64,000 bases of DNA from Pseudomonadales bacterium (lineage in GTDB: Bacteria; Pseudomonadota; Gammaproteobacteria; Pseudomonadales; DT-91), in contig CBDFIY010000003.1 of NCBI GenBank assembly GCA_965248335.1, positions 1,758,920 to 1,822,919 of the forward strand. The letters run 5' to 3'. A model generated the notes under the pieces. That model did no database searches. It had not been told where the DNA came from and saw only the letters and a list, made by a program, of their open reading frames with translations. The position numbers and the translations under genes are program-made. This document shows positions 4,560 to 41,527 of this stretch, one piece after another (within the stretch, counting starts at the first letter, position 1; each line of letters begins with the position of its first letter).

Positions 4560-5799
4560 CCCAGTACGTGACACATAATTTGTTGGATAATAGCCGTTAA
4601 TCTATAATTGACTGAATTAATTGATAATTATGTATCTAATAAGGTTCAAAAATTGACGAACTTATGGATATAATTTGCCCCCCACAAGCATCTCTCTCGC
4701 CAACTCAAGAAATCATTTAGATGTCATGAAAAAAACCTTAATCTGTTTGCAGAAATATTAATTGCTTTGATAGCAGTGAGGTCAGTTAATTTGACAAAAC
4801 TGGCAACACAAGTAGGCAAAGATGTAAAAGTAGAATCGAGTTACAGACGCTTGCAGCGGTTTTTCTCAAAGTCCCATTTCTCACCAAACGGTATAGCCCT
4901 GTTTATTACGCGGTTATTTTTTAATGACAGCATCAAATGGACATTAGCTATCGATAGAACCAACTGGCAATACGGCCGAGTGAATATCAATATATTAATG
5001 TTGAGCATTTGCTATAAAGGTCGTGCAATCCCCGTATTTTGGATGATGCTGAACAAAAAAGGTAACTCTAATACCTGCGAACGCATTCAGCTACTAAATC
5101 GTTTTATCCGCCTGTTTGGGAAAGATCGTATAGAAGCATTAACGGCTGACAGAGAATTTATCGGCAAAGACTTTTTTGACTACCTTGATCAGCAAGGCAT
5201 TCCCTTTGTTATCCGTATTAAAAAGTCTGAAATAACAACCAATAGCCGAGGTCTTGAAGTTAATATTGATGGGCTGTTCTATCATTTAAAGCCCGGTGAG
5301 GAAACATCATTAGCGGGTGTTCGATTACTATGGGGACTGCCTGTTTATCTTTCTGGAAAACGCCTTTCTGATGGTGAATTTCTTATTGTTGCGGCCAATC
5401 AGGCGCTACCCGACAGTTTAATTATTTATGCAAGACGCTGGGAAATAGAAACATTATTTGAATGCCTCAAAACGCGTGGATTTAACTTCGAGGAAACACA
5501 TCTAACGGATCACGATAAAATTGACAGGATGATGTCCGTGCTCGCGATTGCTTATTGCTGGTCTTATAAAACGGGTGTTTGGTGCTGTGAGCAAGGCGAT
5601 GGCATCAGTAAAAAAAACACGGCCGTTTAGAGAAAAGTTATTTTCGCCACGGCCTCGATTTGTTACAGCAAATAATTTCTGGCGTTGTGACTGATATTAA
5701 AAAAATACGAAAATGTCTTAACGCTTTTACGCCTAGAGACTGGATGCCGCCTCTATTTAGGATGAGTGGCATATGAGCAATTAATTGTCATGTACTAGG
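4560..5799 (+). mobile_element. IS4-family (IS10-like) element, copy 1. Defective and lacks a TSD.
   Basis: The ends CCCAGTACGTGACA... and ...TGTCATGTACTAGG are imperfect inverted repeats. It is near-identical to copy 2 at 11754..12995 apart from a 2-bp shorter poly-C tract and a few SNPs. Confidence 0.8.
4664..5630 (+). pseudogene. IS10-like transposase, copy 1. Frameshifted in a poly-C tract (C6 at 4678..4683 vs C8 in copy 2).
   Basis: From the ATG at 4664 the frame hits TAG after 19 codons. The long ORF (4767..5630) is identical to copy 2 residues 36-322 except for one C/R change. The YARRWEIETLFECLK motif resembles the IS10 YSKRMQIEETFRDLK motif. Confidence 0.8.
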
Positions 5800-5881
5800 A
5801 TAAAGGATAAAGGATAAAGGATAAAGGATAAAGGATAAAGGATAAAGGATAAAGGATAAAGGATAAAGGATAAAGGATAAC
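5798..5881. repeat. Tandem heptanucleotide repeat (GGATAAA) x about 12.
   Basis: Perfect head-to-tail 7-bp units, read directly. They begin at the last bases of the IS10-like copy 1 right end. Confidence 0.9.
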
Positions 5882-5978: not shown

Positions 5979-6383
5979 CTAAGCCGTAGGGTTGTTTATA
6001 TAGCGTACTTCCATTCCTTTAGGTTTTCGAAATCCTGCATCGTAAGGTTGATAACGCCTGGTGTGTTCCTTGGATCTTTTACTGGGAATATAGGTTAAAG
6101 CTGGGATTGTAAAATCACGTATGTCGGCTGTATGTTGATCAGGTTTGTCAGTTACGTAGGCCGCTTTTGATTTTGTTAGAAATTTTCTACAGTGCTGATC
6201 CTCATCATTTTGTGCGTTACTGGCAAGCCAAGCTTTTTTGTCTTTATCTACTTCTTCCTTTTTTGTGAAGGATGTTAATAGAATTAGCTTTAAGGCTTTT
6301 TGTAAATTATGATTAAGCTCATCATTTCCTGAAAAATTATAACAAGAAATAAAAAAAGAAATAGAAAATATATATATGCGCAT
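5979..6383 (-). CDS. Hypothetical secreted/lipoprotein-like protein (134 aa).
   Basis: ORF with a hydrophobic N-terminus (MRIYIFSISFFISCYNF). No recognisable family. Confidence 0.3.
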   Translation of the reverse strand: MRIYIFSISFFISCYNFSGNDELNHNLQKALKLILLTSFTKKEEVDKDKKAWLASNAQNDEDQHCRKFLTKSKAAYVTDKPDQHTADIRDFTIPALTYIPSKRSKEHTRRYQPYDAGFRKPKGMEVRYINNPTA

Positions 6384-6451
6384 TTTTTGATAGTTCGTAG
6401 ACTGGAGTATGTTTGTCTATCGTTATTTAAAAAATACTGCATTCAAATAAA

Positions 6452-7306
6452 TTAAATTTTATTCATTATTGTTTTTGATAGTAAATGAAGCAAAAAAAGC
6501 GAAGTTCCGCAAATCCCGCCAATAATAATTGCAGTAAATATGTTAAGCATATAGTTAAGGTTTTCTGTGTTAATGCCAGTAAATAACGCAATGTAATGAT
6601 CTAGGTGCAAAGCATGCATAATAATGTTGCCACCGACAAACAGCATGGCGAGTGTACCTATGATTGAAATTGCTCTAAGAATGAACGGTGCAGCAACTAA
6701 GAGCATTTTACCAATCGTTTTGAATCCACGAACAGAATGTTTTACCAGATAAAAACCTAAATCATCCAGTTTTACGATGACTGCCACTAGCCCATAGATG
6801 CCTATGGTTAATAAGATCGCAACAAAGCTTAATACCATGATTTGCATGTTTATACTTTCTGCCTGAACAATATTCAACGAGATAACAATAATTTCAGTGG
6901 AAAGTACAAAATCGGTTCGAATAGCCCCCTTTACTTGCAGCTTTTCATGCAAGGCGGGGTCTGCTGGCGCTTTAGTTTCATGGGCGGGTTTTTTTGAGAG
7001 GCTGCTGCTAATTTTTTCCATACCTTCATAGCATAAATACAAGCCGCCTACGAGTAGCAAGGGTTGAATAAGGAAGTTAGCGTAAACACTCAAGAGTATC
7101 GCTACAGGAACGAGTATTAACTTATTGATGAGTGCGCCTTTGAATACCGCAAGAATGACAGGAATTTCTCGGTTGTCTTCAAATCCCGATACTTTTTCAG
7201 CACTAACAGCAATATCATCAGTAACGACGCTCATTGTTTTTTGGGCAGTGATTTTTGTCATCGCCGCGATGTCATCAATGAGCGTGAAAAGATTTGCTAA
7301 AGCCAT
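6452..7306 (-). CDS. yedI: DUF808 family inner-membrane protein (YedI-like).
   Basis: MALANLFTLIDDIAAMTKI... N-terminus and multi-TM architecture are typical of DUF808/YedI. Confidence 0.65.
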   Translation of the reverse strand: MALANLFTLIDDIAAMTKITAQKTMSVVTDDIAVSAEKVSGFEDNREIPVILAVFKGALINKLILVPVAILLSVYANFLIQPLLLVGGLYLCYEGMEKISSSLSKKPAHETKAPADPALHEKLQVKGAIRTDFVLSTEIIVISLNIVQAESINMQIMVLSFVAILLTIGIYGLVAVIVKLDDLGFYLVKHSVRGFKTIGKMLLVAAPFILRAISIIGTLAMLFVGGNIIMHALHLDHYIALFTGINTENLNYMLNIFTAIIIGGICGTSLFLLHLLSKTIMNKI

Positions 7307-7332
7307 ATTGTCAATTCCTTTGAAGGATTTAA

Positions 7333-8367
7333 CTATAGATCATGTGTGTCGGTGGGCTTAAACCAGTGTTGCGTGTTATTTGCAAAATGCACAAGCATAA
7401 GCATAACAGGTACTTCCACTAAAACACCGACCACGGTAGCGAGTACAGCGCCAGATTGTAGGCCGAAAAGTGCGATGGCGACGGCGACGGCTAACTCGAA
7501 GAAATTAGAGGTACCAATTAAACTGGCGGGGGCAGCTACGGAATAAGGTAATTTTAGTTTTCTTGCCATCCAGTATGTGAGTGCAAAAATACCGAAAGAC
7601 TGGATGATGAGAGGTATAGCAATAAGCAGAATATCAATACCTTTGCTTAGCAAGGTGTTGGCCTGCAACCCAAATAAAACCACAACCGTTAACACCAGCC
7701 CGAGCATAGAAAAAGGCTTGAAGAAGTCGCAAAACTTTTGGTAGTGATTTTCCCCTTTTTTTAGGAGTCTGTGGCGAATGAGTATGCCTGCGATCAGAGG
7801 CAATATGATGTAGAGGGTTACAGCGTAGAGTAAGGTTTCCCAAGGCACATGAATATCAGAAACGCCAAGCAAAAATGCACTGATTGGCGCAAATGCAAAC
7901 ACCATGATTAAATCATTAACCGATACCTGTACCAGCGTATAATTGGCGTCACCTTTAGTGAGATGGCTCCAAACAAATACCATTGCAGTGCAAGGCGCAA
8001 CGCCAAGTAATATCATACCGGCGATGTATTCATCGGCAAGTTCTTGTGATACCCATGGCGAATAAATAAAGCGAAAGAATAGCCAGGCCAGTGCAGCCAT
8101 GGTAAATGGTTTAATAAGCCAATTGATGACAACGGTAAGCAATAACCCTTTAGGACTTTTACCTACAGATTTGATTGATCCAAAATCAATCTGCACCATC
8201 ATCGGTAAAATCATGATCCAAATTAAAATCGCAATGGGAAAGTTTATGCCTGCAATTTCAAGATTTGCTAAAAACGCAAAGGTAGATGGGAGGTTTGAGC
8301 CAAGGTATACGCCGATTATCATTGCTAATCCGACCCAAACCGATAAAAAGCGTTCGAATAAATTCAT
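7333..8367 (-). CDS. acr3: Arsenite efflux transporter, ACR3 family (344 aa).
   Basis: A 10-TM protein whose N-terminus ([20 protein letters not shown]...) and conserved CTAMVF motif match the ACR3/ArsB(ACR3-type) family. No arsR or arsC lies adjacent. Confidence 0.85.
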
Positions 8368-11184: not shown

Positions 11185-11787
11185 CTACTTCCCTAAGCTG
11201 AAAAACCCAACATGACTGGTTAATATTGAAGGCCAAAATATCAGAAGTGAGCTCGTATAGAAAACATCATATCCGTAAATCGAAATAACTCTGCGCTTCT
11301 TTTGCTGGCAATATATCGGAAAATTCTGCAATGAAAGGCTGGCTACCAATACCCGCTTGATAAACCGATGACTAACCCTCGCAACAAAACGTTCCGGCAC
11401 AATATATCGGTGGTGGGTATATACTGGAGAGCCATCACTATAAATAACACTTCCGGGACTCACTACATCCAGAATGAACTGTTTAATATTATCTTTTGTT
11501 ACCGCAGAAACATGCCTTAAACGAACCCGTCCAAAGCCTTTAGGTTCAAGTAGCTCTACCGCTACGAGAATGACTGTTTTACTTTTACTGTTATGATTTC
11601 CTTTGCTTTTTCTCGGCACAACACCGCCAATGAAAATTTCGTCAACTTCAACGAGGCCTAATAACTTTTCTCTTTCTGGGTTGATCATTGCTGAGCGCAG
11701 CCTATGCAATAGCGCCCAAGATGTTTGATAACTTCCAAGTCCAAGTAGACGATCCCAGTACATGACAATTAATTGCTCATATGCCAC
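11185..11787 (-). pseudogene. IS1595-family (ISXO2-like) transposase C-terminal part. The gene is interrupted by IS10-like copy 2.
   Basis: ...LGLGSYQTSWALLHRLRSAM... and the DDE region (VDEIFIGG..., YSDGSPVY) are as in the DDE_Tnp_IS1595 family. It is continuous with the N-terminal fragment once the inserted IS is removed. Confidence 0.75.
11745..11753. repeat. 9-bp target-site duplication (GTAGACGAT, plus-strand reading) of IS10-like copy 2, inner side.
   Basis: The identical 9-mer is at 12996..13004, and both directly abut the CCCAGTAC... terminal IRs. A 9-bp TSD is the IS10/IS4 hallmark. Confidence 0.75.
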
Positions 11788-12995
11788 TCACCCTAAATAG
11801 AGGCGGTATCCAGTCTCTAGGCGTAAAAGCGTTAAGACATTTTCGTATTTTTTTAATATCAGTCACAACGCCAGAAATTATTTGCTGTAACAAATCGAGG
11901 CCGTGGCGAAAATAACTTTTCTCTAAACGGCCGTGTTTTTTTTACTGATGCCATCGCCTTGCTCACAGCGCCAAACACCCGTTTTATAAGACCAGCAATA
12001 AGCAATCGCGAGCACAGACATCATCCTGTCAATTTTATCGTGATCCGTTAGATGTGTTTCCTCGAAGTTAAATCCACGCGTTTTGAGGCATTCAAATAAT
12101 GTTTCTATTTCCCAGCGTCTTGCATAAATAATTAAACTGTCGGGTAGCGCCTGATTGGCCGCAACAATAAGAAATTCACCATCAGAAAGGCGTTTTCCAG
12201 AAAGATAAACAGGCAGTCCCCATAGTAATCGAACACCCGCTAATGATGTTTCCTCACCGGGCTTTAAATGATAGAACAGCCCATCAATATTAACTTCAAG
12301 ACCTCGGCTATTGGTTGTTATTTCAGACTTTTTAATACGGATAACAAAGGGAATGCCTTGCTGATCAAGGTAGTCAAAAAAGTCTTTGCCGATAAATTCT
12401 CTGTCAGCCGTTAATGCTTCTATACGATCTTTCCCAAACAGGCGGATAAAACGATTTAGTAGCTGAATGCGTTCGCAGGTATTAGAGTTACCTTTTTTGT
12501 TCAGCATCATCCAAAATACGGGGATTGCACGACCTTTATAGCAAATGCTCAACATTAATATATTGATATTCACTCGGCCGTATTGCCAGTTGGTTCTATC
12601 GATAGCTAATGTCCATTTGATGCTGTCATTAAAAAATAACCGCGTAATAAACAGGGCTATACCGTTTGGTGAGAAATGGGACTTTGAAAAAAACCGCTGC
12701 AAGCGTCTGTAACTCGATTCTACTTTTACATCTTTGCCTACTTGTGTTGCCAGTTTTGTCAAATTAACTGACCTCACTGCTATCAAAGCAATTAATATTT
12801 CTGCAAACAGATTAAGGTTTTTTTCATGACATCTAAATGATTTCTTGAGTTGGCGAGAGAGATGCTTGTGGGGGGGGCAAATTATATCCATAAGTTCGTC
12901 AATTTTTGAACCTTATTAGATACATAATTATCAATTAATTCAGTCAATTATAGATTAACGGCTATTATTCAACAAATTATGTGTCACGTACTGGG
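11754..12995 (-). mobile_element. IS4-family (IS10-like) element, copy 2. Intact (1242 bp), inserted into the IS1595 transposase gene.
   Basis: Terminal IRs CCCAGTACATGACA / CCCAGTACGTGACA, flanked by 9-bp direct repeats. It encloses a full 322-aa transposase ORF. Confidence 0.85.
11923..12891 (-). CDS. IS4-family (IS10-like) transposase, intact (322 aa).
   Basis: Full-length ORF through the G8/C8 tract at 12870..12877. YARRWEIETLFECLK matches the IS10-type Y-R-E-K signature region. Confidence 0.85.
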   Translation of the reverse strand: MDIICPPHKHLSRQLKKSFRCHEKNLNLFAEILIALIAVRSVNLTKLATQVGKDVKVESSYRRLQRFFSKSHFSPNGIALFITRLFFNDSIKWTLAIDRTNWQYGRVNINILMLSICYKGRAIPVFWMMLNKKGNSNTCERIQLLNRFIRLFGKDRIEALTADREFIGKDFFDYLDQQGIPFVIRIKKSEITTNSRGLEVNIDGLFYHLKPGEETSLAGVRLLWGLPVYLSGKRLSDGEFLIVAANQALPDSLIIYARRWEIETLFECLKTRGFNFEETHLTDHDKIDRMMSVLAIAYCWSYKTGVWRCEQGDGISKKNTAV

Positions 12996-20851: not shown

Positions 20852-20940
20852 TCTTTTTGACTTGCCACAATACTTGGGGCTGCCACAGGCTTCACTTTAG
20901 GCAGATTTAATTGGAATCAGCTTTCTTGCTCTATTACGTT

Positions 20941-21068
20941 TATACCCATCGGAATTGGAGATGCAAGAAGGCGGCAAGCGAGCGAATCCCCATGAGCTTA
21001 CAGTCAGTAAGTGATTGGGGTGAGCGAGCGCGGCCAACGCCCTTACATCTTCAAGGGTAATCGGTATA
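20941..21068 (+). repeat. MITE-like intergenic repeat, copy A (128 bp).
   Basis: TATACCCATCGGAATTGGAG...CTTCAAGGGTAATCGGTATA. Near-identical copies at 36472..36599, 38953..39079 (inverted) and 40955..41081. Confidence 0.75.
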
Positions 21069-21140
21069 AGCGATAGTAGTAAGGTTTTATCAGTAGAAGT
21101 GGCTCGCTCATTGTTATGGCTCGTTATATAATGCGTAATT

Positions 21141-23887: not shown

Positions 23888-23919
23888 ATTTCAACATACT
23901 TGTCGCCTAAAGTTTACTT

Positions 23920-24996
23920 TTATGCCGCCTGATTTATTTCCCTATTACTTTTAGATTTCCCTGGGTTTAAATAAACCTCAGCAATGTGATCCCAGTTTCT
24001 AATGTCGCCACTCCATCGCTCTGGGTGCGCCATTTTCGCCTGTAGATAAACAGCTTTACGGTTGATTAAGATAATTCTATCTTGCTTCGTATGACGCTCT
24101 ACAGGCGTGACATATTTTATGCTGCTGTGTCTGTGCTCATGATTATACCAATCAGCAAATCCATTCACCCATTTTCGTGCTAAATCTAAACCCTCAAAGG
24201 CTTTTTCTGGGTATTCTGGTCGATACTTAAGTGTTCTAAATAATGACTCAGAATAAGGGTTATCATTACTAACAGAGGGGCGGCTAAACGACGGAGCAAC
24301 CCCTAATTCTTGCAGTGTCGCTAGCATTGTTGCGCCTTTCATCGGGCTACCGTTGTCCGAATGTAAGATCACCTGATTCGGCTTAATCCCTTCACGTAAG
24401 CAAATATCTGTCATTAAATCTGCGGCCAATGCACTGCTTTCTTGTTCATATACCTGCCAACCAACAATCTTTCGGCTATAAATATCCATGACAAGATACA
24501 AGTAATAAAACAAGCCTTTTACCGTTGTTGGTAAATACGTAATATCCCAACTATAAATCTGATTCGGGCCTGTGGCCGTCAACGATTCAGGTTTTGTAAT
24601 AACTCTGGCAGGCTTACTTCTCAGCCGATGCTTATCTTGTTTATGTGCTTTTAACACACGGTAAATAGTGGATTCAGATGCGATGTACACACCTTTATCT
24701 GCAAGCATTGGCACGATGACGCTGGGCGATAAATTCGCGTATTCAGGTTGGTTGCAGACCTGAATAATACGCTGTCTCTCAAGCTCACTGAGCTTATTAC
24801 AAGGGCTGTGCTTGGCTGACAAACGACCATCTTCATCGCCCTCTGGTCGCGCCCAGCGCTGTAATGTTTTTGGTGTAATGCCTATAATATCGCAAGCCTG
24901 CCTTTGCCTAGCACCATTGGATCGAGCCTCGCTAATCAAGTGAATAATATCATCACGCTCTTGTTTCACTATTAGCTGGCCTCGTCGCTTTCCCAT
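23920..24996 (-). CDS. IS3-family transposase OrfB (integrase catalytic core, DDE).
   Basis: rve-type domain (WDITYLPT, LHSDNGSPM, YNHEHRHSS). The frame is open upstream into the orfA overlap. Confidence 0.85.
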   Translation of the reverse strand: MGKRRGQLIVKQERDDIIHLISEARSNGARQRQACDIIGITPKTLQRWARPEGDEDGRLSAKHSPCNKLSELERQRIIQVCNQPEYANLSPSVIVPMLADKGVYIASESTIYRVLKAHKQDKHRLRSKPARVITKPESLTATGPNQIYSWDITYLPTTVKGLFYYLYLVMDIYSRKIVGWQVYEQESSALAADLMTDICLREGIKPNQVILHSDNGSPMKGATMLATLQELGVAPSFSRPSVSNDNPYSESLFRTLKYRPEYPEKAFEGLDLARKWVNGFADWYNHEHRHSSIKYVTPVERHTKQDRIILINRKAVYLQAKMAHPERWSGDIRNWDHIAEVYLNPGKSKSNREINQAA

Positions 24997-25493
24997 ATTT
25001 CGTGGACTTTTTTTTGGAGTACTAGCAGCGCTGCTGTTTCAGCTAATGCCTTATCTTTACGGTTTAACTCCTTTTTTAGTAACTTAATGTCATTTTTAAA
25101 TTGCTTATTCTCACTTTGAATTTCTGAAGCAGTCGATAGGGGCTTATTCTTGATAAAATCACCTCTCCATTGGTTGATATGATGTGGGTATATTCCTTTC
25201 TCTCGGCAAAGCTGGCTGATGTCCTCGACGCTCAAAGATCCGCAGGCAATGACCATATTCAAACGTTCTTCAGCGCTCCAATCTTGGGGCCTTTTTTCTT
25301 TAACCATGGTCATTACCCCACCATCTAATGGTTGATTAAGCCGTTGCTCTTTAGCCTGTCTAATCCATTTTTGTAACGTCGAATGGCCAATACCTAAGTT
25401 TTCAGCCACATCCTTGATGCTCATACATTCTTGTCGGCTCAATGCCTTTTCTATTGCCTGTATCTTAAACGAATGGGTAAACGATTTTCTCAT
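24972..25493 (-). CDS. IS3-family transposase OrfA (HTH + leucine zipper).
   Basis: HTH MSIKDVAENLGIGHSTLQKW. It overlaps orfB, and an A8G slippery run lies about 35 nt before its stop. Confidence 0.85.
   Translation of the reverse strand: MRKSFTHSFKIQAIEKALSRQECMSIKDVAENLGIGHSTLQKWIRQAKEQRLNQPLDGGVMTMVKEKRPQDWSAEERLNMVIACGSLSVEDISQLCREKGIYPHHINQWRGDFIKNKPLSTASEIQSENKQFKNDIKLLKKELNRKDKALAETAALLVLQKKVHEIWESDEAS
25007..25016 (-). promoter_or_regulatory. Candidate -1 programmed ribosomal frameshift site (A AAA AAA G) joining orfA and orfB.
   Basis: The plus strand has C-T8-GG at 25007..25017. On the coding strand this is CCAAAAAAAAG, the canonical IS3 A6G-type slippery heptamer inside the orfA 3' end. 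Confidence 0.6.
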
Positions 25494-25644
25494 TTTTTAT
25501 GCCTCTAATTAAAATTTTAGAGGCGACAAGTATCCTGACACAGGGGGTTACCCACTGTGGAAAAGAATGTTCTGTTGCTGTTGGATTAAATGCGAGCAAA
25601 AGCTGGCTGCGCATCAAATGAGAACTTTTATAGATGATCAGTAA

Positions 25645-28600
25645 TCATGCTATGTTAATATTTTTTAGTTTCTCTGCAATGGCAATCATCTTGTCATGAT
25701 TCTTCAAATCAATATCCAGCTTTTTATCCATACTTTGTACCAGTGGTGAAAGGCTGTACTCGATACTTTCGGCCAAGGCATGCAGTACTTTTTGGATGCC
25801 GGGCACCGGTTGATTGACCACTTGTACATCCGTTTTATTTGCTGCAAATATTTTTGCCATTAACGCGAGGCTTTGTCTGTCCATCGTGAGTGAGGGGGTA
25901 GACGAAGAGTTATCTAACGCAGATAATAATGCTTTTATGCTATCGGGGTGAAGACGGAGATTATTTTCACTGTTGTCCGTTGAACTTTGGGTAACTTGCT
26001 CAGCCGTTTGATTGAGCTGCTTAAAGCCACTGACAAGATCAACAAGCTGTGCGACCACTTTACTGCCTACATCGGCATCATCACCGCCCATGGCTTTGTT
26101 GCGAAGAAAGTCTGCTTTAATGGCTTTCCAGCGCTCGGTCTCTTCTGCTGTCATATTGCCGCGCAGTTCGGCCAATTTAAGTAAATTCGCTTCCGCACCA
26201 GCGGTTAATAGCTGCGCTTCGCCCACATAGTGATCGGCAATCAGCGTCAAGAGTTCATCGTCATTCATCACGGCCGAGACTTTCTCGGTCATTTTGTTCA
26301 TGTTTCGGTAGCTACCTTGTAATTTAAACGCAGGCTCCGTGCGGTATTGATTATCTTGCGCGGCAGATTGGATATATTGTTGATTCACGTTGAGAATCAC
26401 CTCTTGCACCACAAACAGTTTTTTGAAAACAGTGACGATTTCATCCAGCTCTGCACCGCTGTAAGGGTGGCTAAGGGCATGGGTTGAGACCTCTTTGCCT
26501 TGTGCCATGGCGATCAAATGATAGATGTCTTGCATTTCGCGCAGTGCTAAAGGAGCTAAAACGGGGTGTGAGGTGAGTGCGTTCTCGACATAACTGAGGG
26601 AAAAGGGTTCTTCCATGCCGCCTAAAACATCACCGAGATTATAAATATCAGCACGGTTGGCGAGCATGTCCGGTACTTTAAACACATCACCGGATTCGGT
26701 GTAAGGGTTACCGGCCATCACCACGCAAAATTTACGGCCACGCATGTCATAGGTTTTGGTTTGCCCTTGCCAGATGCCTTCGATACGACGTGTGCCATCG
26801 CAGAGCGAGATAAATTTTTGTAAAAACTCGGGGTCTGTGTGCTGAATATCGTCTAAATACAGCATCACGTTGTCACCCATCTCTAAGGCTAAATTGAGTT
26901 TGATGAGTTCTTGTGCAGCGGTGGAATTCGGGGCTGTAGCCGGATCGAGTGAAACGACTTCATGGCCTAAAGACGGGCAGTTGATTTTCATGAAAATCAA
27001 CCCTAAGCGGCTGGCGACGTATTCCATTAAGGTCGTTTTACCGTAGCCTGGGGGGCTGATCATCATCAACAATCCCATTAAGTCGGTGCGTTTTTTATCG
27101 CCTAATGCGCCCATTTGTTTTGCCAAGTTATCGCCAATGATCGGCAAATAAGCTTCGTTAATTAAGCGGTTACGTACAAACGAACTTAATGGTTTAGGTG
27201 TGAACTCATGCAAGCGTAGTTTTTCGCGCTCTTCGCTGATGATGTTTTTTCGCACTGCTAGATAGCGTTGGTAAGCCGGAATAATCACAGTTTTATGTTG
27301 GGCTAAACGCTGTAAAAATTCATCCAATGAGAGGCGTAAGCTCCGGTCTTTTATGCGCGCATGGCTGCCCATTAAACCGGTGATGGTGCTGTCGATTACC
27401 GCGTCGTTACGTCGGTAGCTGAGTTGTGACTCAGACAATAAAATCGCGCAGGCTTCGGGGATATAATGCGCGAGTCCTTCTTGCGGTTGATCCGACAGCA
27501 GGGCAGTTAACCAAGCCGTAGCCAGTTGCCACTGTTCGCCGACCTGATCGTTGAGGTGGCTTAATGCTTGGCGTAATGTTTTCCAAAGATCATCGGTGAG
27601 TGCTGTTTTTAAGCTGTCGATTAAGCGTAAACCTTGCTGACTTTGGATGAATGCACAGTTGGGGCGGCCGAGTTCATGCGCGAGATAATCAGCGGCTTGA
27701 TGCAGCGTGCCCTCATCGACAGGCAGTGCGTGGCTTGTGGCGAATAGGGTTAATTGCGTGCTGACTTCGGCGGTGAAGAGATTTATCGCCTCAAGGCTGC
27801 CAAAGTGGTCTTTCATTTGTTGTGCTGATTGCGCACGTTGAAGAAAGTTTTGCGTGGTGATGTCGGTTTTACCCTGACAAGCAGCAAGCCAAAATACTTG
27901 GGCAACAGCGCGTATGAGCGGGCTAAATCTGAGCAGGTCTGCATGGGCTAACGCGGGAAGTAGCGCTTGTAGAATCTTTTTCGCATCCTCATCATGAATG
28001 CCTTTTTGGTAGCCTTCTTGGTAACGGGGTGCAGCAAAATCGCGCACCAGTGCGGTTAGAGCGGCCTCATCCAAACGCGCGGCGTCGAGTTTTTCGAGCG
28101 TCAAATCGTCTTTGTGATGTTGTGCCGCATCAAGAATTTCATACGCCAGAAATTCTGCACGATAGACTTGATCGGTTTCCGAGATTTGGTTCATTGACCA
28201 ATAATCTTTCAGCGCTAATAACTCAGGGTGATCGATCTTTTCAAAATACTGGGTGCCCGTGATGTGGCAATAGAGATCGCCCTCACGCGGAATAATGGTG
28301 AGATCTAGGGGTTGCGTATTGACGCTGAATTTATGCCGCGGCCCGAGCTTGATGACGTTGCCGCCTTCTTCATAAATATCGGTTTTGTCGCGTAAGGCGC
28401 GCAGTGCTTGTTCTTTGATTGCAGCAAATCCTGAGGCGATTTCATCGGCTTTGACGTTGCTGTCGAGTGCGCGTAATTGCTCGATCAGATCACGTACCTT
28501 GATCACCAGTGCATCCGAGGAAAAGTAGGTGTGTAGGGCCTGTGCTTCGTTCATTTTGAGCGAGCGTCTTTCCATGTTTTTTAACATGCGTTGCGCTGCA

Positions 28601-30948
28601 TCGGTTAATGATTGTGCCTTGCGTTGTTGTTCGTCAATCAGTTGTTGCTTGTGCGACTCAAACGCTTCGTAGATATCTTCGCGCTTGGTTAAAATATCCG
28701 CCAAGAACGTATCTTGACCGCTAAATTGGCTTTCTAAATCTTCGAGTTGTACCAGTAAACGCGATAATTGTTCATCGCAGGCATCCGGCGTCGCCGCATT
28801 GCCCAAGGCGTTGGTTAAGCTTTGTGATAGCAGCTTAAATTGCGCCGAAAATTGCGCCGTTGATTCGGTGGAGGTTAAGGCTTTTTCGCGGTGCTTGGCC
28901 TGTGCTTTGCTTTGGTTGAGTTTGGCGTAGACATCGGAGATGGCTTCTATGATGCGAGCTTTCAGTGTCACATCAGGCACTTTCAGGGTTGCCATTAATT
29001 CGCTGAGTAAATCGAGTCCCTCGGCAATCGCTTTAACGGCTTCTACGAGTGGGGTGAGGGTATGGGTGTTTTCAGCGGCGGCTATGTCGCTATCAAGGCG
29101 GCTAATTTTTTCAAAATAAGGTGCTAATGCACGTTCATCTGCTAAAAAATCGACGGTCTTTTGTTGTAATCCGGCTTCGCTATCATTGAGTTCGGTTGTC
29201 ATGATTTCAATGCGATCGAGATCAATATAACGATGACCCTTGATGGTCATTAAGCGGCCGCGCTGTTGCCGGCAGTCGATGAGGGCGTTAACGTAATCTT
29301 CCGCTTGCTCCCATTGTTCAATCTGCAAGGCTTTTAATAAGGCGGATTGATCCGTTTCTGCTTGACGCATAATGGCGGCAGATTGGGTTTGAATGCTCTG
29401 CACTTTGATGAATTCGTCGATGACCAGCTCGGCGGTATCACTGATGGCTTTGAGTGTGTCAGCCAATAGTTTTAGGGATGCATCGGTCAGCCAATAATGG
29501 TTATCAAAGATTTTTTTGGCGGTGCTGCTCAGTGCTTCGTAACGCTTTTGCGAAACGATGTTGTCATCGATCATGCGGGTAATGCTGAACAGATCAGAGA
29601 CGCCGCGCACCAAGGCAGCGTTGCCAATTTTACCCAGAAAACTTTGGCTGGTGGGCTGCTGTGCGGCAAAATCAGCGCTGATAAATGGCGTTTGCCAAAT
29701 TTGCATAGGGTGGATGCGGGTGGCTTCTTCTTCGGCAGTAAAAATCGCCAAAATGCCGTCTTCGGCGAGTGCATAGCCATGCCCCATGATGGGATTACCG
29801 AGTTGCTTATCAATCAGGTTGTAGGCAAATAACCCCATGGCACCATCATTCGGGTTGTAAAAAACATAAGAAATATCTTCACCGTTAGGCGAGCGGATGG
29901 CGCGTTTAAAGGTAAAACCCTCGGTGTTTTCATCAAAGGTTTTGTACTCGCCGCTTTGCAGGTAGTAACCACCGGGGAAGATCAGACCGTGATCTTCGGG
30001 TAGCTGCACACAAGATTCACCCAGTGCATCAATGCGCAGCACCGATTGGGTGAGGGTATTAAAAATAAAATAACGCCATTTTTCTTCGCGGTAAGGGCGA
30101 ATCTTTAACAAGATAAGCTTGCCGACTTCGGCATAATGGAAGTCGCCATCATCTAAGGATTGAGTTTGATCGTCGACAAGTTCTTGGTAAATGCCTAAGC
30201 CGTCTTCGGTGTTGTTTTCTATTTTTAAAGTTAAATCGCCATTGATGGTTTCAACAAAAACAGTATCCAGAATATTGATATGGGAGTGACGTCCGTGTAC
30301 GGCATCTTCGCGGCGGGTTTCTTGCCATTCAAAATCAAATGCGGGCGGTAATTGAATGTCGCGTTCACCGCGATTATCGATGTAGTCGATAATGTTTTCG
30401 CAGGCTGAGATTGACCAGCGGAAAACACGCAAGTCGGTTAATCGTTCGCCAATTTGAAAACCGGCTAAAAGTTTACCTTGTTTGACGGTGAGTTCGACCA
30501 GCTTGGTATTTTTGTAATAACGATACAGTTCTTCAAAATCTTGGGTGAAACGGCTGTCGTTGAGGAAGGTGTCATCGAGGTTGAGCGGCTCTAACGCATA
30601 GTCGTCGTCGCTATACACTGGCTCAAAAAGGGCAAAAACATCCTGAACCTGTGTTTCTTTTTTCAGGCCAATAAACACGTTGTAGCCAAATAGTAGGTTG
30701 CTGCCAACTTGCACCATATCCCGCGCAATGCAGTTGTGTTCGGTGCGGACGCGGATGCGTGACATCACCGACATGTCGGAACGGCCGAATTCATTGAGCC
30801 TTGATTCGTTGAGTGTTTCGGTTTGCGTCAGTAACTCACGGCTTTGAACATCAAGTCGCTTACGGATGACATCATACGCACCGCCTTCGGCAACGGAGGT
30901 ATCCAGTGAGTTTTCAGCGTGTTCTTGCAGGGCATCAGGCGTGCTCAT
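25645..30948 (-). CDS. Giant multidomain protein (1767 aa) with a central/C-terminal AAA+ ATPase module (MoxR/AAA_5-like) and long coiled-coil regions. Function unknown.
   Basis: Walker A ISPPGYGKTTLMEY, Walker B VMLYLDDIQ, sensor-1 CVVMAGNPYTE and Arg-finger-like NRADIYNLG are all present. The N-terminal ~450 aa is probably beta-rich. A very long helical/coiled-coil middle section follows. The ORF is open throughout. Confidence 0.8.
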   Translation of the reverse strand: MSTPDALQEHAENSLDTSVAEGGAYDVIRKRLDVQSRELLTQTETLNESRLNEFGRSDMSVMSRIRVRTEHNCIARDMVQVGSNLLFGYNVFIGLKKETQVQDVFALFEPVYSDDDYALEPLNLDDTFLNDSRFTQDFEELYRYYKNTKLVELTVKQGKLLAGFQIGERLTDLRVFRWSISACENIIDYIDNRGERDIQLPPAFDFEWQETRREDAVHGRHSHINILDTVFVETINGDLTLKIENNTEDGLGIYQELVDDQTQSLDDGDFHYAEVGKLILLKIRPYREEKWRYFIFNTLTQSVLRIDALGESCVQLPEDHGLIFPGGYYLQSGEYKTFDENTEGFTFKRAIRSPNGEDISYVFYNPNDGAMGLFAYNLIDKQLGNPIMGHGYALAEDGILAIFTAEEEATRIHPMQIWQTPFISADFAAQQPTSQSFLGKIGNAALVRGVSDLFSITRMIDDNIVSQKRYEALSSTAKKIFDNHYWLTDASLKLLADTLKAISDTAELVIDEFIKVQSIQTQSAAIMRQAETDQSALLKALQIEQWEQAEDYVNALIDCRQQRGRLMTIKGHRYIDLDRIEIMTTELNDSEAGLQQKTVDFLADERALAPYFEKISRLDSDIAAAENTHTLTPLVEAVKAIAEGLDLLSELMATLKVPDVTLKARIIEAISDVYAKLNQSKAQAKHREKALTSTESTAQFSAQFKLLSQSLTNALGNAATPDACDEQLSRLLVQLEDLESQFSGQDTFLADILTKREDIYEAFESHKQQLIDEQQRKAQSLTDAAQRMLKNMERRSLKMNEAQALHTYFSSDALVIKVRDLIEQLRALDSNVKADEIASGFAAIKEQALRALRDKTDIYEEGGNVIKLGPRHKFSVNTQPLDLTIIPREGDLYCHITGTQYFEKIDHPELLALKDYWSMNQISETDQVYRAEFLAYEILDAAQHHKDDLTLEKLDAARLDEAALTALVRDFAAPRYQEGYQKGIHDEDAKKILQALLPALAHADLLRFSPLIRAVAQVFWLAACQGKTDITTQNFLQRAQSAQQMKDHFGSLEAINLFTAEVSTQLTLFATSHALPVDEGTLHQAADYLAHELGRPNCAFIQSQQGLRLIDSLKTALTDDLWKTLRQALSHLNDQVGEQWQLATAWLTALLSDQPQEGLAHYIPEACAILLSESQLSYRRNDAVIDSTITGLMGSHARIKDRSLRLSLDEFLQRLAQHKTVIIPAYQRYLAVRKNIISEEREKLRLHEFTPKPLSSFVRNRLINEAYLPIIGDNLAKQMGALGDKKRTDLMGLLMMISPPGYGKTTLMEYVASRLGLIFMKINCPSLGHEVVSLDPATAPNSTAAQELIKLNLALEMGDNVMLYLDDIQHTDPEFLQKFISLCDGTRRIEGIWQGQTKTYDMRGRKFCVVMAGNPYTESGDVFKVPDMLANRADIYNLGDVLGGMEEPFSLSYVENALTSHPVLAPLALREMQDIYHLIAMAQGKEVSTHALSHPYSGAELDEIVTVFKKLFVVQEVILNVNQQYIQSAAQDNQYRTEPAFKLQGSYRNMNKMTEKVSAVMNDDELLTLIADHYVGEAQLLTAGAEANLLKLAELRGNMTAEETERWKAIKADFLRNKAMGGDDADVGSKVVAQLVDLVSGFKQLNQTAEQVTQSSTDNSENNLRLHPDSIKALLSALDNSSSTPSLTMDRQSLALMAKIFAANKTDVQVVNQPVPGIQKVLHALAESIEYSLSPLVQSMDKKLDIDLKNHDKMIAIAEKLKNINIA

Positions 30949-33018: not shown

Positions 33019-33738
33019 TTATTTTAGAAAGTCTTTTTCAGCGATGACTGAATAGGTGTTTTGTTCTTTCTGGTATGCCAATAACACCACGCGATCGCCT
33101 TTAGTAAATGTCGTGTCTTCATGTGTGCGAACTTTTAAGATCAAGCCTGCGCCGCCATCTTCAACAACCGCCTCGCCAAAGTTGTGATCGACACGCGAGC
33201 TTCTGACGACTGCAGTTTGCCCAAGAATGTATTGTTCAGTGGTTTTTTTTAATTGCTGAAAGAGTGGCCGAAGCGGTTTAATGCAAAAGATCGTGATTTT
33301 TAACCCAAGAAACAGGGAAACCAGAAATATACCCATATTAGCGGCAAGGCTTAATATACCGGCAGGGATATAGGCTTCGGAAAAATAAACAAAATAATAA
33401 CTAAAGAACCAAGCAAATACCGCGATCAAGGTGAGCGAAATGGTAACAGGTACATCGTGCAAGTTGAGTTTTAGAATAACGCCAGCAATGCCGTCAGGCA
33501 CTGTGGCCGTATCTGCTTCAAGGGCACCTGTGTCGATATCAGTGCCGCCTAGGAAATCGATATCGACAAGCCCGAGTACAGCAATACACCAAAAGAGCAG
33601 GGTTAGGATTAAGAAAAAGGTGAAAATGGCTGTTGGGAAGCTTGAGGCAAGCTGATAGAAAGGATCCATTTTTTCACTGAGAAAAATCGCAAACACAAGC
33701 CGTCCTTTTTTATTATTCGCACCCTTTGCGGGCAGCAT
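33019..33738 (-). CDS. yqiJ: NfeD-like membrane protein (YqiJ-like) with a C-terminal OB-fold.
   Basis: Several TM helices, then the NfeD beta-barrel (GQTAVVRSSRVDHNFGEAVVEDGGAGLILKVR...GDRVVLLAY). The true start may be the internal Met (MDPFYQL...). Confidence 0.75.
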   Translation of the reverse strand: MLPAKGANNKKGRLVFAIFLSEKMDPFYQLASSFPTAIFTFFLILTLLFWCIAVLGLVDIDFLGGTDIDTGALEADTATVPDGIAGVILKLNLHDVPVTISLTLIAVFAWFFSYYFVYFSEAYIPAGILSLAANMGIFLVSLFLGLKITIFCIKPLRPLFQQLKKTTEQYILGQTAVVRSSRVDHNFGEAVVEDGGAGLILKVRTHEDTTFTKGDRVVLLAYQKEQNTYSVIAEKDFLK

Positions 33739-33797: not shown

Positions 33798-35088
33798 GTT
33801 TGGCTCCCAGGGCCTCCTAGCACTTTTTGATCAGTGCATAAATTGACCGGAGAAAAGCATTTTCTCTCTGTATTTATCATTAATTGCACACCCCATAACT
33901 CGATGTTTCATCCCCTTTTTGCTTTGATCATTAAGTGTTAACAAATTCATACAGTGACGCTTTATTGTAGCAATATTGAGCCCAGCGGAATGAAGCTGGC
34001 AGTCATCTTCTTTAAAAGTAACATCTAACCGCCAATGCAGTTTATTTTCTATTTCCCAGTGTCCCCTAATGGCTTTCGCCGCATGCTTTGCATCAGGAGA
34101 GCGTGAGCTAATATACCAGGAAACTTCTTTAGACTCCCCTTTATTTGAAGACCGATGCCGCTCAACACGCACAGCCGAACTCAAGCCGCTCCAAGGTTTA
34201 GCCTTATCTACCCAGTCTGTTAATTCAAAGTGCTGATATTTCCTTATCTCTAATCGACCATGCCCTTTATTCGCCTCCTCAAAATATGAGGTCTTATTTT
34301 CTTCATAACCATCACGTTCAAGCTTGTGATGAAAAGCTTGGATTTCTTCCAGCAACCCCTGCTGATTACCTTTCAGTTGCAGAAAATAGTCAGCTTCTTT
34401 TTCAATAATCTTTTTTGCGATTTCTTTTTGGCATCCCATCGCATCAATGGTAATAGTGGCATTTTTTACCTCAATTCTGTCGATAAGCTTCGGCAAAGTT
34501 TTGATTTCATTTTTCTTTCCTTCTGATTCGAGGGCACACAGCGTCAGGCCTCGGCTTTGAGACCATGCACTAATAACATGGATGGCTTCTCGACCATTGT
34601 GCCTTGTTCCTCGCATCGTTTTGCCGTCTAATGAAATAACATCTCCTGTAGATTCACCCTGCAAACTTGAAACGAATGTCGTAAACCCTTCAATCAAATC
34701 TCTTGGTCTTATGCATGCAAGTAAAAACCGTAATGTTTCTGCACAGGGAGCAGATTCGATATCTGTATGCTTCTGCAGCCAGTCAAGCTTCATAGCTGCA
34801 AAATTAGACATGCTGTTAGGGCTATCATAACCACTTATTATTGATGAAAAAACGATTAGAAGGAGGCTTTCAAGGCTGTGTTTTTGATTGATGCCTTGTC
34901 GCGGATCTCTTATTGAGGCTGTACATGCAGATATATTCATGGTGTTTGGATGGCAGAAAACTATCTTTGACAATAGGTATGAGAAATTGACTATTTTAAT
35001 ATTGAATTTTTCAAGGACTTCGTATTATATGACAGCTTAAACTTTGTACTGATCAAAAAGTGCTAGGAAGCCCTGGTTTGGCTCCTAG
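33798..35088 (-). mobile_element. ISAs1-family element (about 1.29 kb).
   Basis: 35-bp terminal inverted repeats, CTGATCAAAAAGTGCTAGGA(G/A)GCCCTGG..., at 33798..33832 and 35051..35085. The transposase ORF lies inside. Confidence 0.8.
33831..34973 (-). CDS. ISAs1-family transposase (H-repeat-associated protein type).
   Basis: 380 aa. The C-terminal signature RGHWEIENKLHWRLDVTFKEDDC is diagnostic of ISAs1. Confidence 0.85.
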   Translation of the reverse strand: MSKIVFCHPNTMNISACTASIRDPRQGINQKHSLESLLLIVFSSIISGYDSPNSMSNFAAMKLDWLQKHTDIESAPCAETLRFLLACIRPRDLIEGFTTFVSSLQGESTGDVISLDGKTMRGTRHNGREAIHVISAWSQSRGLTLCALESEGKKNEIKTLPKLIDRIEVKNATITIDAMGCQKEIAKKIIEKEADYFLQLKGNQQGLLEEIQAFHHKLERDGYEENKTSYFEEANKGHGRLEIRKYQHFELTDWVDKAKPWSGLSSAVRVERHRSSNKGESKEVSWYISSRSPDAKHAAKAIRGHWEIENKLHWRLDVTFKEDDCQLHSAGLNIATIKRHCMNLLTLNDQSKKGMKHRVMGCAINDKYREKMLFSGQFMH

Positions 35089-35091
35089 GGG

Positions 35092-36288
35092 TTAGTGCTT
35101 TTTCGGTTTTTTGGATTTGAAGGGTTTGGTGTTGAGTTTTGAGGGCGGTAATTTAGCCATGGGCTCGAAACCTGTCACCTCTTTTCGTTCAAGCACTTTT
35201 TTTGTGAGTCGCTCAATGGCTTGCAATTGTTTAAATTCATCGGCACTGACCAAGGATACGGCATGGCCCGTGGCACCTGCGCGCCCTGTACGACCAATAC
35301 GATGCACATAATCTTCGGCAACTTGTGGCAGGTCGACATTAATAACATGTGGCAGTTGATCGATGTCGATGCCTCGTGCGGCAATATCGGTAGCAACTAA
35401 GGTACGAATAGAGCCATCTTTGAAACCGGCAAGCGCTTTAGTTCGTGCACCTTGGCTTTTGTTGCCGTGAATGGCCGCTGCGCCGACACCAGCTGCTTCG
35501 AGCTGTTTGGCTAGTTTATTGGCGCCGTGTTTGGTGCGTGAAAATACCAGCACCTGTTGCCAGTCATTGTCTTTGATTAAATGAACCAGTAATTTGGCTT
35601 TGTGGCTTTTATCGACGGGATGAATCCACTGCGTAACGGAGGAGGCTGTGGTGTTTCTTGGGGTAACGGATATCTCTACAGGGTTGTGAACCAAGCCCTT
35701 GGCCAGTGCGCGAATCTCTTCCGAGAAAGTGGCGGAAAACAACAAGTTTTGACGCTTTTTTGGCAAGAGCGCGATAATCTTTCGGATGTCTCGAATAAAG
35801 CCCATATCCAACATGCGATCCGCTTCATCTAAAACGAGCACTTCGAGTTGATTGAATTTCATCGCATTTTGCTGATAAAGATCGAGCAATCGGCCAGGTG
35901 TAGCAACCAAAATATCAACGCCCTTACGCAGTTTCATCATTTGTGGGTTGATTTTCACCCCACCAAATACCACGGCAGAGCTGATGTTTACATTTTTGCT
36001 ATAAATCTCGATGCACTGATGAACTTGCGCGGCAAGCTCACGTGTTGGCGTGACGATCAGTGAGCGCACTTGATTACCTTGCGCTGGCTTCCCTTTAGCG
36101 AGTTTTTCGATTAAAGGTAAGGCGAAGCCCGCTGTCTTGCCTGTACCAGTTTGTGCGGCAGCAAACACATCTTTGCCTTCTAAAATGGCAGGGATAGCTT
36201 GCGCTTGAATGGGTGAAGGCGTTTCGTAGCCTTGTTCAGTTACCGCATCAACGATTTGTGCGGATAAACCAAGAGAAGAAAAGGTCAT
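35092..36288 (-). CDS. rhlE: DEAD-box ATP-dependent RNA helicase (RhlE-like).
   Basis: Q-motif start [33 protein letters not shown], then [32 protein letters not shown], and a basic C-terminal tail. The ORF extends upstream, but the RhlE-like Met was chosen as the start. Confidence 0.85.
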
Positions 36289-36471
36289 AGATGAATTACT
36301 TATGATGAGTGGTTTAGGTCTCCAAATGGAGAGCCGCGCAGTGTACAGTAAAGCCTGCGTTGAGTCACAAACTAAGGTCACGATCTGAGGTAGCGGTTAA
36401 TGCTTGTATTATTACGTGGCTGATGCGTGATTTTATTTAGTGGCGTCATGCGGTAATAAGGTTCCACCTAT

Positions 36472-36599
36472 ATACCCATCGGAATTGGAGATGCAATAAG
36501 GCGGCAAGCGAGCGAATCCCCATGAGCTTACAGTCAGTAAGTGGTTGGGGTGAGCAAGCGCGGGCAACGCCACTGCATCTTCAAGGGTGATCGGTATAA
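36472..36599 (+). repeat. MITE-like intergenic repeat, copy B.
   Basis: Near-identical to 20941..21068. Confidence 0.75.
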
Positions 36600-38921: not shown

Positions 38922-38952
38922 ATGCCAGCCAACTCTTTTCAAATGATGTGCT

Positions 38953-39079
38953 ATACCGATCACCCTTGAAGACGCAAGGGCGTTGGCCGCGCTCGCTCAC
39001 CCCAATTATTTACTGATTGTAAGCTCATGGGGATTCGCTCGTTTGCCGCCTTCTTGCATCTCCAATTCCGATGGGTATA
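38953..39079 (-). repeat. MITE-like intergenic repeat, copy C (inverted).
   Basis: Reverse complement of the consensus. It ends 8 bp before the stop codon of the esterase gene. Confidence 0.75.
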
Positions 39080-40948: not shown

Positions 40949-41527
40949 TCACCTATACCCATCGGAATTGGAGGTGCAAGAAGGCGGCAAGCGAGTGAAT
41001 CCCCATGAGCTTACAATCAGTAAGTGATTGGGGTGAGTGAGCGCGGCCAACGCCCTTGCATCTTCAAGGGTGATTGGTATGAAGCCATGGTCGTACTTGG
41101 TTTTTGTAATGTGTAAATTCTTGGCCAAAATTTGCTGCCAAAGCTTTTTCTTCAGGCTGTACTTGAAATCGCTGAATATAGGCAATGTAAAAACAATTAA
41201 GCTGGCGGCCCCTACTGAGCTTAGATACACAGACCAAGCAAACAGAAAGATAACAAAGCCAACATACATCGGGTTTCTTGTTATTTGATAAATAACTGAT
41301 GTGACGAGCGTTGTTGAAGCGGCTGGATTCAGTGGGTTAATGGTTGTCTTGGCGTTACGAAATGCTATTGATCCGGCCACCCCGAGTGACCATATAATCC
41401 CTACAAGTGTGTATTTGATGACAGGATTATCATTGAATGTGGGGGTATGTATGGCTACTCCCCACATGCCACCGGCAAAAATTAAAGCAACTAATGGCGG
41501 CGGTATTTTACTATCAAGAAAGCTCAC
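40949..41527 (-). CDS. Isoprenylcysteine carboxyl methyltransferase (ICMT/PEMT)-family membrane methyltransferase. Its 3' end runs into MITE copy D.
   Basis: Multi-TM protein with an RNPMY motif. The last ~34 codons (IPITLEDARALAALTHPNHLL...SDGYR) are encoded by the MITE, so the native C-terminus has been replaced. Confidence 0.6.
   Translation of the reverse strand: MSFLDSKIPPPLVALIFAGGMWGVAIHTPTFNDNPVIKYTLVGIIWSLGVAGSIAFRNAKTTINPLNPAASTTLVTSVIYQITRNPMYVGFVIFLFAWSVYLSSVGAASLIVFTLPIFSDFKYSLKKKLWQQILAKNLHITKTKYDHGFIPITLEDARALAALTHPNHLLIVSSWGFTRLPPSCTSNSDGYR
40955..41081 (+). repeat. MITE-like intergenic repeat, copy D.
   Basis: Near-identical to the other copies. It is inverted relative to copy C, and together they flank the esterase gene. 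Confidence 0.75.

Follow-up and report, generated by a model that had tools for sequence, protein, structure and literature searches.

The subject of this analysis is a 64,000-nucleotide stretch of contig CBDFIY010000003.1 from a Pseudomonadales bacterium (GenBank assembly GCA_965248335.1), called the window here, and within it a gene for an ATPase of 1767 amino acids. The gene is the last of a compact cluster of three. Directly upstream on the same strand is a flotillin-like gene, as had been claimed earlier, and before it lies a gene for a YqiJ-like protein, with intergenic gaps of 62 and 28 nucleotides (Table 1). The ATPase belongs to DUF3686, a catalogued family with an operon context that has already been published. 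The cluster in the window is an abbreviated three-gene form of that operon, bracketed by two insertion sequence (IS) elements.

Table 1. Features of the three-gene cluster and its surroundings. Positions are those of the window; residues are those of the ATPase. AF2, AlphaFold2; TM, transmembrane.
Feature	Position	Strand	Description
DUF3686/"DNA repair ATPase" family open reading frame, P. aeruginosa BacE orthologue	25645..30948	minus	1767 amino acids
DUF3686 domain, residues 38-485	29494..30837	minus	helix 25-54, then beta-propeller of ~7 blades (beta-rich 60-420)
Long-helix rod, residues 437-853	28390..29640	minus	spectrin-repeat-like antiparallel bundles (AF2)
DUF7902, residues 607-689	28882..29130	minus	within the helical rod
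Motif and small beta unit, residues 854-904	28237..28389	minus	near-invariant DIYEEGGNVIKLGPRHKFSVNTQxLDLTIIPR
Second helical domain, residues 930-1172	27433..28161	minus	shorter helices (AF2), conservation 0.20-0.38
AAA+ alpha/beta core, residues ~1250-1450	26599..27201	minus	Walker A, Walker B, sensor-1 N1414, R1432
Conserved helical region, residues 1451-1600	26149..26598	minus	conservation 0.44-0.55; helices in AF2
Variable linker and C-terminal long helix, residues 1601-1767	25648..26148	minus	conservation 0.06-0.26
Flotillin/YqiK-like protein, 659 amino acids	31011..32990	minus	TM segment at residues 10-28, long Ala/Glu/Lys-rich helical region
YqiJ/YuaF-type short NfeD protein, 239 amino acids	33019..33738	minus	3 TM segments and soluble C-terminal domain
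ISAs1-family IS	33815..35065	minus	terminal inverted repeats; between rhlE and the three-gene operon
rhlE	35092..36381		upstream neighbour of the operon beyond the ISAs1 element
IS3-family IS	23888..25541	minus	~100 bp beyond the stop codon of the ATPase gene

The open reading frame (ORF) of the ATPase starts with ATG after an AAAGGA Shine-Dalgarno-like sequence and runs without interruption. An earlier reading, made from the letters of the DNA (the sequence-only reading), had likewise described a single unbroken ORF of 5.3 kb, leaving its strand unstated. The N-terminal domain is matched by Pfam PF12458 (DUF3686) over the whole of the profile (positions 1-448 of 448; E = 4.8e-200, 665 bits against a cut-off of 25), and PF25472 (DUF7902) follows with 82 bits against a cut-off of 26 (E = 3e-23). 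The sequence-only reading saw no recognisable family in residues 1-450, which is wrong because PF12458 covers residues 38-485. The novelty that it implied for the protein is lost as well, as profile searches put the whole protein in a known, functionally undefined family. All four marks of that family are present: DUF3686, DUF7902, a C-terminal AAA+ module with the family motifs, and flotillin/YqiJ-like genes upstream. No SMC profile in Pfam or NCBIfam matched the ATPase.

The family numbers at least 5166 proteins at E <= 1e-5, and an exhaustive search with residues 1-500 as the query returned 716 representative clusters at E <= 0.001. Full-length members are 1590-1930 amino acids long and carry DUF3686 at the N-terminus; DUF7902 was found in all of 29 diverse members. 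Full-length relatives in the Cellvibrionales and Oceanospirillales are about 60% identical to the window protein and go by the names "DNA repair ATPase" or "AAA family ATPase." Among plasmid records searched with tblastn, members occur in Streptomyces, Nonomuraea, Deinococcus, Hymenobacter, Vibrio, Photobacterium, Halomonas, and Proteus.

In broad terms, the architecture outlined by the sequence-only reading (a beta-type N-terminus, a helical middle, an AAA+ module, and a tail) was right. An AF2 model of residues 1-1190, with a mean predicted local distance difference test score (pLDDT) of 78.8, narrows the beta-rich part, once placed at about residues 1-450, to residues 60-420. This domain is modelled as six four-stranded meanders together with N- and C-terminal strands and would therefore form about seven propeller blades. 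When the model was compared with the PDB by Foldseek, solely beta-propeller proteins were matched, with probabilities up to 1.00 and low TM-scores. Matches that took in both propeller and helical region were to IFT-A, Elp1, and nucleoporin chains, and matches to the propeller alone were to paraoxonase, BtuK1, prolyl-oligopeptidase, and Trilobed-protease domains. The comparison thus settles the fold class, though not any specific family.

Behind the propeller, the model places a rod whose longest helices span 52, 58, and 51 residues. A coiled coil of about 700 residues had been proposed for residues 450-1150, and the helix-rich character of this region is borne out. Its extent as a coiled coil was overstated, since in a crude heptad scan only two stretches, residues 489-519 and 767-804, scored higher than the 99th percentile of shuffled sequences. 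On the strength of the AF2 model and the heptad scan, the middle of the protein is better described as a predicted rod, built of antiparallel bundles of helices, that leads into a globular domain, also helical. The latter has the lowest conservation of all parts ahead of the ATPase. Between the two lies a short segment with near-invariant columns across the family, GGNVIKLGPRHKFSVNTQxLDLTIIPR (residues 854-890). Its pLDDT falls below 50 at residues 854-881, and a small beta unit is modelled at 883-904. The segment from 854 to 904 can be offered as a candidate partner-contact or ring-contact element.

The four AAA+ motifs quoted in the sequence-only reading are all present: ISPPGYGKTT (Walker A) at residues 1297-1306, MLYLDDIQ (Walker B) at 1362-1369, VVMAGNP (sensor-1) at 1409-1415, and NRADIY at 1431-1436. 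The core was misplaced at residues 1180-1380 and lies about 100 residues further along, near residues 1285-1450; in the window, SPPGYGKTT is encoded at 27031-27057 and MLYLDD at 26848-26865. Residues 1150-1767 were modelled poorly by AF2 (mean pLDDT 63.6), yet the AAA+ alpha/beta core was recovered at a pLDDT of about 64-88, with helices after the core. Conservation was assessed in an alignment of 69 full-length sequences, namely, the window protein and 68 diverse representatives down to 31% identity. Walker A reads SPPGYGKT(T/S) in 68 of the 69, while DDIQH, MAGNP, and NRAD are kept in all listed motif variants, and conservation along the protein peaks in the AAA+ core, at 65-73% column identity. 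The motif set is evidently under strong purifying selection. Degenerate Walker motifs in homologues had been named in advance as a finding that would refute the sequence-only reading; they were looked for in these 69 diverse sequences, and the objection fails because the motifs are essentially invariant. Every listed variant has a Walker B of the form hhhhDD (D1366-D1367) in place of the usual DE, a form that one would not usually expect in an AAA+ protein with catalytic activity.

Which AAA+ clade the module belongs to is less clear. The sequence-only reading called it MoxR/AAA_5/McrB-type, an assignment that did not hold up as a result and that we keep as a possibility. The AAA_5 match to the ATPase region scored 21.7 bits, under the cut-off of 22; the other weak Pfam matches were to AAA and AAA_22, and AAA_3 did not match at all. 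When 29 members were searched, AAA, AAA_5, AAA_22, and RuvB_N each matched all 29 with similar best E-values, and the best for AAA_5 (1.2e-8) was no better than that for the generic AAA profile (6.3e-9). NCBIfam gave nothing beyond a P-loop match to RuvB. Sequence searches of the PDB with the single protein and two family profiles returned matches at the P-loop level only, to Rix7, RuvB, and p97, and the profiles preferred Rix7/NVL, p97, and RuvB only over the half of the module made up of helix 0, the P-loop, and strand 2.

These results bear on one of the other explanations considered for the protein. RavA, CbbQ, and NorQ are MoxR-type chaperones for specific enzyme complexes, and the window ATPase could be a chaperone of this type that matures a specific (membrane) enzyme complex or inserts its cofactor, with the propeller in place of a VWA adaptor. 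AAA_5 has the longest Pfam coverage (positions 2-125 of 139) in addition to matching all 29 members, and a beta-hairpin is predicted at residues 1388-1401, just ahead of the sensor-1 strand. Against these points stand the subthreshold AAA_5 score, the missing AAA_3 match, the preference of the profiles for Rix7/NVL, p97, and RuvB over the P-loop half, and the lack of a VWA gene among the window neighbours or the conserved neighbour clusters described below. A maturation chaperone is compatible with the data and overlaps with the interpretation preferred below; as a separate explanation, we consider it unlikely.

The sequence-only reading counted about 380 residues after the ATPase and took them for a helical tail. 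Some 320 residues follow the core, of which about 150 are conserved and only the last 165 or so are variable, with a helix modelled at 1718-1766. The conserved part (residues 1451-1600) is possibly an AAA+ lid with an insertion, and the invariant FKLQGSYRNMNKM within it is a possible sensor 2. No hydrophobic stretch of membrane-spanning length, and hence no TM segment, was found in the ATPase. The anchoring to membrane microdomains that the sequence-only reading proposed is conjectural.

Public entries name the flotillin-like protein "flotillin family protein" or "YqiK," and it is orthologous to PaFlo3/BacD of P. aeruginosa; its match to the NCBIfam model FloT is weak (E = 1.5e-4), no Pfam family recognises it, and Band_7 does not match even at E <= 10. 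The YqiJ-like protein, whose likely true start is M24 at position 33669, has no Pfam match of its own. It is 27-55% identical to the product of the upstream gene in each of the 71 loci that have one (described next), and the orthologue in locus L008 matches Pfam YqiJ_N.

Evidence for a functional link among the three genes comes from their neighbourhood in other genomes, for which 80 genome loci were sampled. In 76 of the 80, the ATPase gene has a flotillin-like gene immediately before it on the same strand, and in 71 there is a YqiJ-like gene upstream, which makes the link between the ATPase and the flotillin gene far stronger than could have been known from the window. The other four loci gave no flotillin match; three of them offer hardly any DNA on the upstream side, and the fourth has transposase ORFs directly upstream. 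The trio is retained in metagenomic relatives that are only 31% identical, on a Streptomyces plasmid (Actinomycetota), and in Hymenobacter (Bacteroidota), in which it is preceded by a "molecular chaperone Tir," PspA/IM30, and a DUF1449 protein. Across the 71 loci, the identities of the three proteins to those of the window co-vary (Spearman 0.65-0.80), which fits inheritance as a unit. In one Zetaproteobacteria metagenome-assembled genome (L063), two near-identical tandem ORFs of 306 and 311 amino acids lie between the flotillin and ATPase genes (6003-7903).

Clustering of the neighbouring ORFs gave a longer conserved order: DUF2170 (YjfI, CesT/Tir-like), PspA/IM30, YqiJ-like, flotillin-like, ATPase, rhomboid, PLD/HKD, Zn-ribbon, and a 78-amino acid protein. 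Behind the ATPase gene, a PLD/HKD gene is found in some of the loci, 18 according to the clustering. Further downstream, beyond the ATPase, rhomboid, and PLD genes, 15-17 loci share genes for a Zn-ribbon protein of about 180 amino acids and for the 78-amino acid protein (e.g., L008 14630-15430; clusters c7 and c8). None of the DUF2170, PspA, rhomboid, PLD, Zn-ribbon, and 78-amino acid genes occurs anywhere in the 64-kb window.

The neighbourhood also bears on the public annotation, under which the protein would be an ATPase of DNA repair. This explanation draws on the name (Pfam, "ATPase involved in DNA repair"; NCBI, "DNA repair ATPase") and on the weak RuvB matches, which are limited to the P-loop. 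The Pfam, NCBIfam, and PDB searches turned up no domain of a nuclease or helicase and none that binds DNA, and the genes conserved around the ATPase gene belong to membrane scaffolds and envelope stress, not to repair. Literature searched for DUF3686, for PF12458, and for flotillin together with DNA repair ATPase gave no match, and no paper characterising the ATPase itself was found there. A role in DNA repair is therefore given hardly any weight here, and the widely propagated name is probably misleading.

The IS elements on either side of the cluster raise the question of how the abbreviated form came about. A 10-bp direct repeat, GGAGCCAAAC, flanks the ISAs1 element as a target-site duplication, and the element is for this reason a simple insertion between rhlE and the operon. 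It follows that rhlE is the native upstream neighbour and that the operon in the window is of the abbreviated form. An IS-mediated loss of upstream PspA and DUF2170 genes was considered and rejected on account of this duplication. The IS3 element shows no clear target-site duplication, and the rhomboid and PLD genes may have been lost on that downstream side. After the ISAs1 insertion, the operon may depend on a promoter carried by the element or on read-through. Four sites in the window fit the sigma-54 consensus TGGCAC-N5-TTGC with one mismatch allowed, no more than expected by chance and none near the cluster, and a scan for sigma-70 promoters and terminators gave nothing above shuffles.

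Other repeats are scattered over the window. An element of about 130 nucleotides, resembling a miniature inverted-repeat transposable element, is present in four copies of 91-95% identity, three direct (20936-21069, 36466-36599, and 40949-41082) and one inverted (38952-39079); one of the copies lies just upstream of rhlE. An inverted repeat of 1.25 kb with 98-99% identity (4560-5801 and 11752-12995) contains the ORFs 4767..5630 (plus strand) and 11923..12891 (minus strand). The pair resembles two IS copies around some 6 kb, possibly a composite transposon. A perfect inverted repeat of 411 nucleotides (1-411 and 2084-2494) lies at the left edge of the window.

The window protein can be connected to laboratory work on P. 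aeruginosa through published primers. The orthologue in P. paraeruginosa (locus L044, 7974..13214; 1746 amino acids) is 54% identical to the window protein over the full length. On this locus, the forward primer of the published 16190/20 reverse transcription PCR (RT-PCR) pair maps to the 3' end of the ATPase gene, and the reverse primer maps to the 5' end of the PLD gene. BacE (PA3728/PA14_16190) is therefore the orthologue of the window ATPase, and BacF is the PLD protein. The pair spans 174 bp in P. paraeruginosa (L044 13078-13251), compared to the 501 bp stated for PA14; the two species may differ here, or the published table may be in error, and the gene assignment is unaffected.

The bacABCDEF genes, or "biofilm-associated cluster," are co-transcribed, and a sigma-54 promoter has been proposed for them (PMC10948618). 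In a bacA mutant, the BacB-BacF proteins increase 6- to 13-fold (BacE 8.9-fold), and mutants in bacA and bacB, from which the published phenotypes come, are affected in biofilm, rhamnolipids, and virulence (PMC10948618). PaFlo3 (PA14_16180) is an SPFH protein according to InterPro and has a short NfeD partner (PMC13086221). In cystic fibrosis isolates, PA3728 is recurrently mutated (PMC8190622), and upon phage infection, PA3728-PA3732 are up-regulated (PMC12041424).

The phage response invites another explanation, namely, that the genes form an anti-phage or conflict system. The ATPase would be its sensor or motor, and the PLD/HKD protein would be a nuclease-like effector that, together with the membrane components, brings about abortive infection or membrane disruption. 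The PLD/HKD gene found after the ATPase gene in part of the loci and the IS elements that bracket the cluster in the window would also suit such a system. However, phage induction is equally expected of a Psp-type membrane-stress response, the window and many loci have no PLD gene, and the target-site duplication marks the ISAs1 element as a simple insertion, not the boundary of a mobile island. None of the three proteins was matched by a PADLOC model, even at E <= 0.1. Homologues were found in none of 50,697 phage records and in only 13 of 72,556 plasmid records, which are mostly megaplasmids, chromids, and chromosome-sized records. The module is widespread, and its three proteins diverge together. 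An anti-phage role is thus improbable.

Bacterial flotillins and PspA/IM30 are thought to organise and repair membranes, and we know of no established energy-consuming partner for them. The interpretation we prefer is that the soluble AAA+ protein is such a partner, working on the YqiJ/flotillin membrane scaffold (and also on PspA in extended operons) as an envelope-stress remodeller or assembly factor; we give it about an even chance of being correct. The module would have three parts: the YqiJ/NfeD-type protein with its three TM segments, the flotillin/YqiK-type SPFH scaffold, and the ATPase made of propeller, rod, and AAA+ module. In many relatives, a CesT/Tir-like chaperone (DUF2170), PspA/IM30, a rhomboid protease, and a PLD/HKD protein extend it to a Bac/Psp-type envelope-stress operon. 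A ring may form by oligomerisation of the AAA+ modules, the propeller, carried on the tip of the spectrin-like rod, may dock on the cytoplasmic flotillin assembly or on PspA polymers, and ATP binding and hydrolysis would then promote assembly, turnover, or disassembly of the scaffold under membrane stress. Oligomerisation, binding partner, and direction of remodelling are all put forward here by inference. They build on what is directly seen, that is, the domain architecture, the motif set, and the linkage to flotillin and YqiJ genes across phyla, and on the co-expression and co-regulation of the P. aeruginosa orthologue documented in the literature.

Several observations weigh against this scheme. 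The interaction and the remodelling activity are conjectural in any organism. Judging from the motif, the DD Walker B could mean slow, switch-like hydrolysis, not a processive motor, and no classical aromatic pore-loop motif was evident on inspection of the sequence. The AAA+ clade is not settled, and the C-terminal AF2 model, as mentioned, is poor. In the window, any link to PspA would need genes elsewhere in the genome. In P. aeruginosa, deletion of paFlo3 is mild, with only about 20% less biofilm (PMC13086221).

A bolder form of the same idea is that the family is a dedicated ATP-driven motor for flotillin cages, PspA polymers, or both. Such a motor would be a ring of about 1.2 MDa with six spectrin-like arms, each with a propeller at its tip, and its task when the membrane is damaged would be to assemble, extract, or recycle the subunits of the scaffold. 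This is offered tentatively, and we would sooner doubt it than rely on it. If true, bacterial membrane repair by flotillin and Psp would have its missing energy source in the ATPase, a functional counterpart of Vps4. As it stands, the DUF3686 ATPase family is the most consistent genomic candidate for an energy-consuming partner of flotillin and PspA, and its member in P. aeruginosa shares regulation with a PspA-type cluster that has been linked to biofilm, virulence, and the phage response.

A comparison with known systems helps to place the module. With the MoxR class (RavA, CbbQ, and NorQ), whose members remodel specific complexes in the manner of chaperones, the window ATPase shares a single AAA+ module, and its weakly best structural matches are to this class. 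It differs in being about six times larger, in lacking a VWA partner, in its DD Walker B, and in not reaching the Pfam cut-offs. The likeness to Vps4-ESCRT-III and FtsH-HflK/C, from which the mechanics proposed here are drawn by analogy, is a conceptual one. In both of these, an AAA+ enzyme is genetically and physically coupled to a membrane-scaffold polymer, of the ESCRT-III type (as is PspA) or of the SPFH type. Such pairing of AAA+ proteins with membrane scaffolds has been discussed before (PMC11237479). The window ATPase differs from these enzymes in having neither an MIT nor a protease domain and in not being anchored to the membrane.

The nearest relatives are the Bac operon and the systems predicted by Ravi and colleagues. 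The BacE operon has the same short NfeD gene (bacC) and SPFH/flotillin gene (bacD/paFlo3) upstream of the ATPase gene; the window differs in lacking bacA (DUF2170), bacB (PspA), bacF (PLD), and a nearby sigma-54 consensus. Ravi et al. (mSystems 2024; PMC11237479) described the same operon, with a beta-propeller, coiled-coil, and AAA+ ATPase protein, YqiJ/YuaF, and band-7/flotillin. They reported that some Proteobacteria add a PLD (HKD) hydrolase, that abbreviated operons without PspA are more widespread, and, in a table entry for Dokdonia, the architecture "Betapropeller+Coiled-coil+AAA-ATPase" (PMC11237479). Domain architecture and neighbourhood are the same here, and the window corresponds to their abbreviated form of flotillin, YqiJ, and AAA+ ATPase without PspA (PMC11237479). 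The window itself contributes one more orthologue in this three-gene form and no new biology. To the published account, which is a prediction only, the present analysis adds the identity of the DUF3686 and DUF7902 domains, the propeller of about seven blades, and the spectrin-like rod, as well as the invariant DD Walker B, the invariant motif at residues 854-890, and a quantified synteny.

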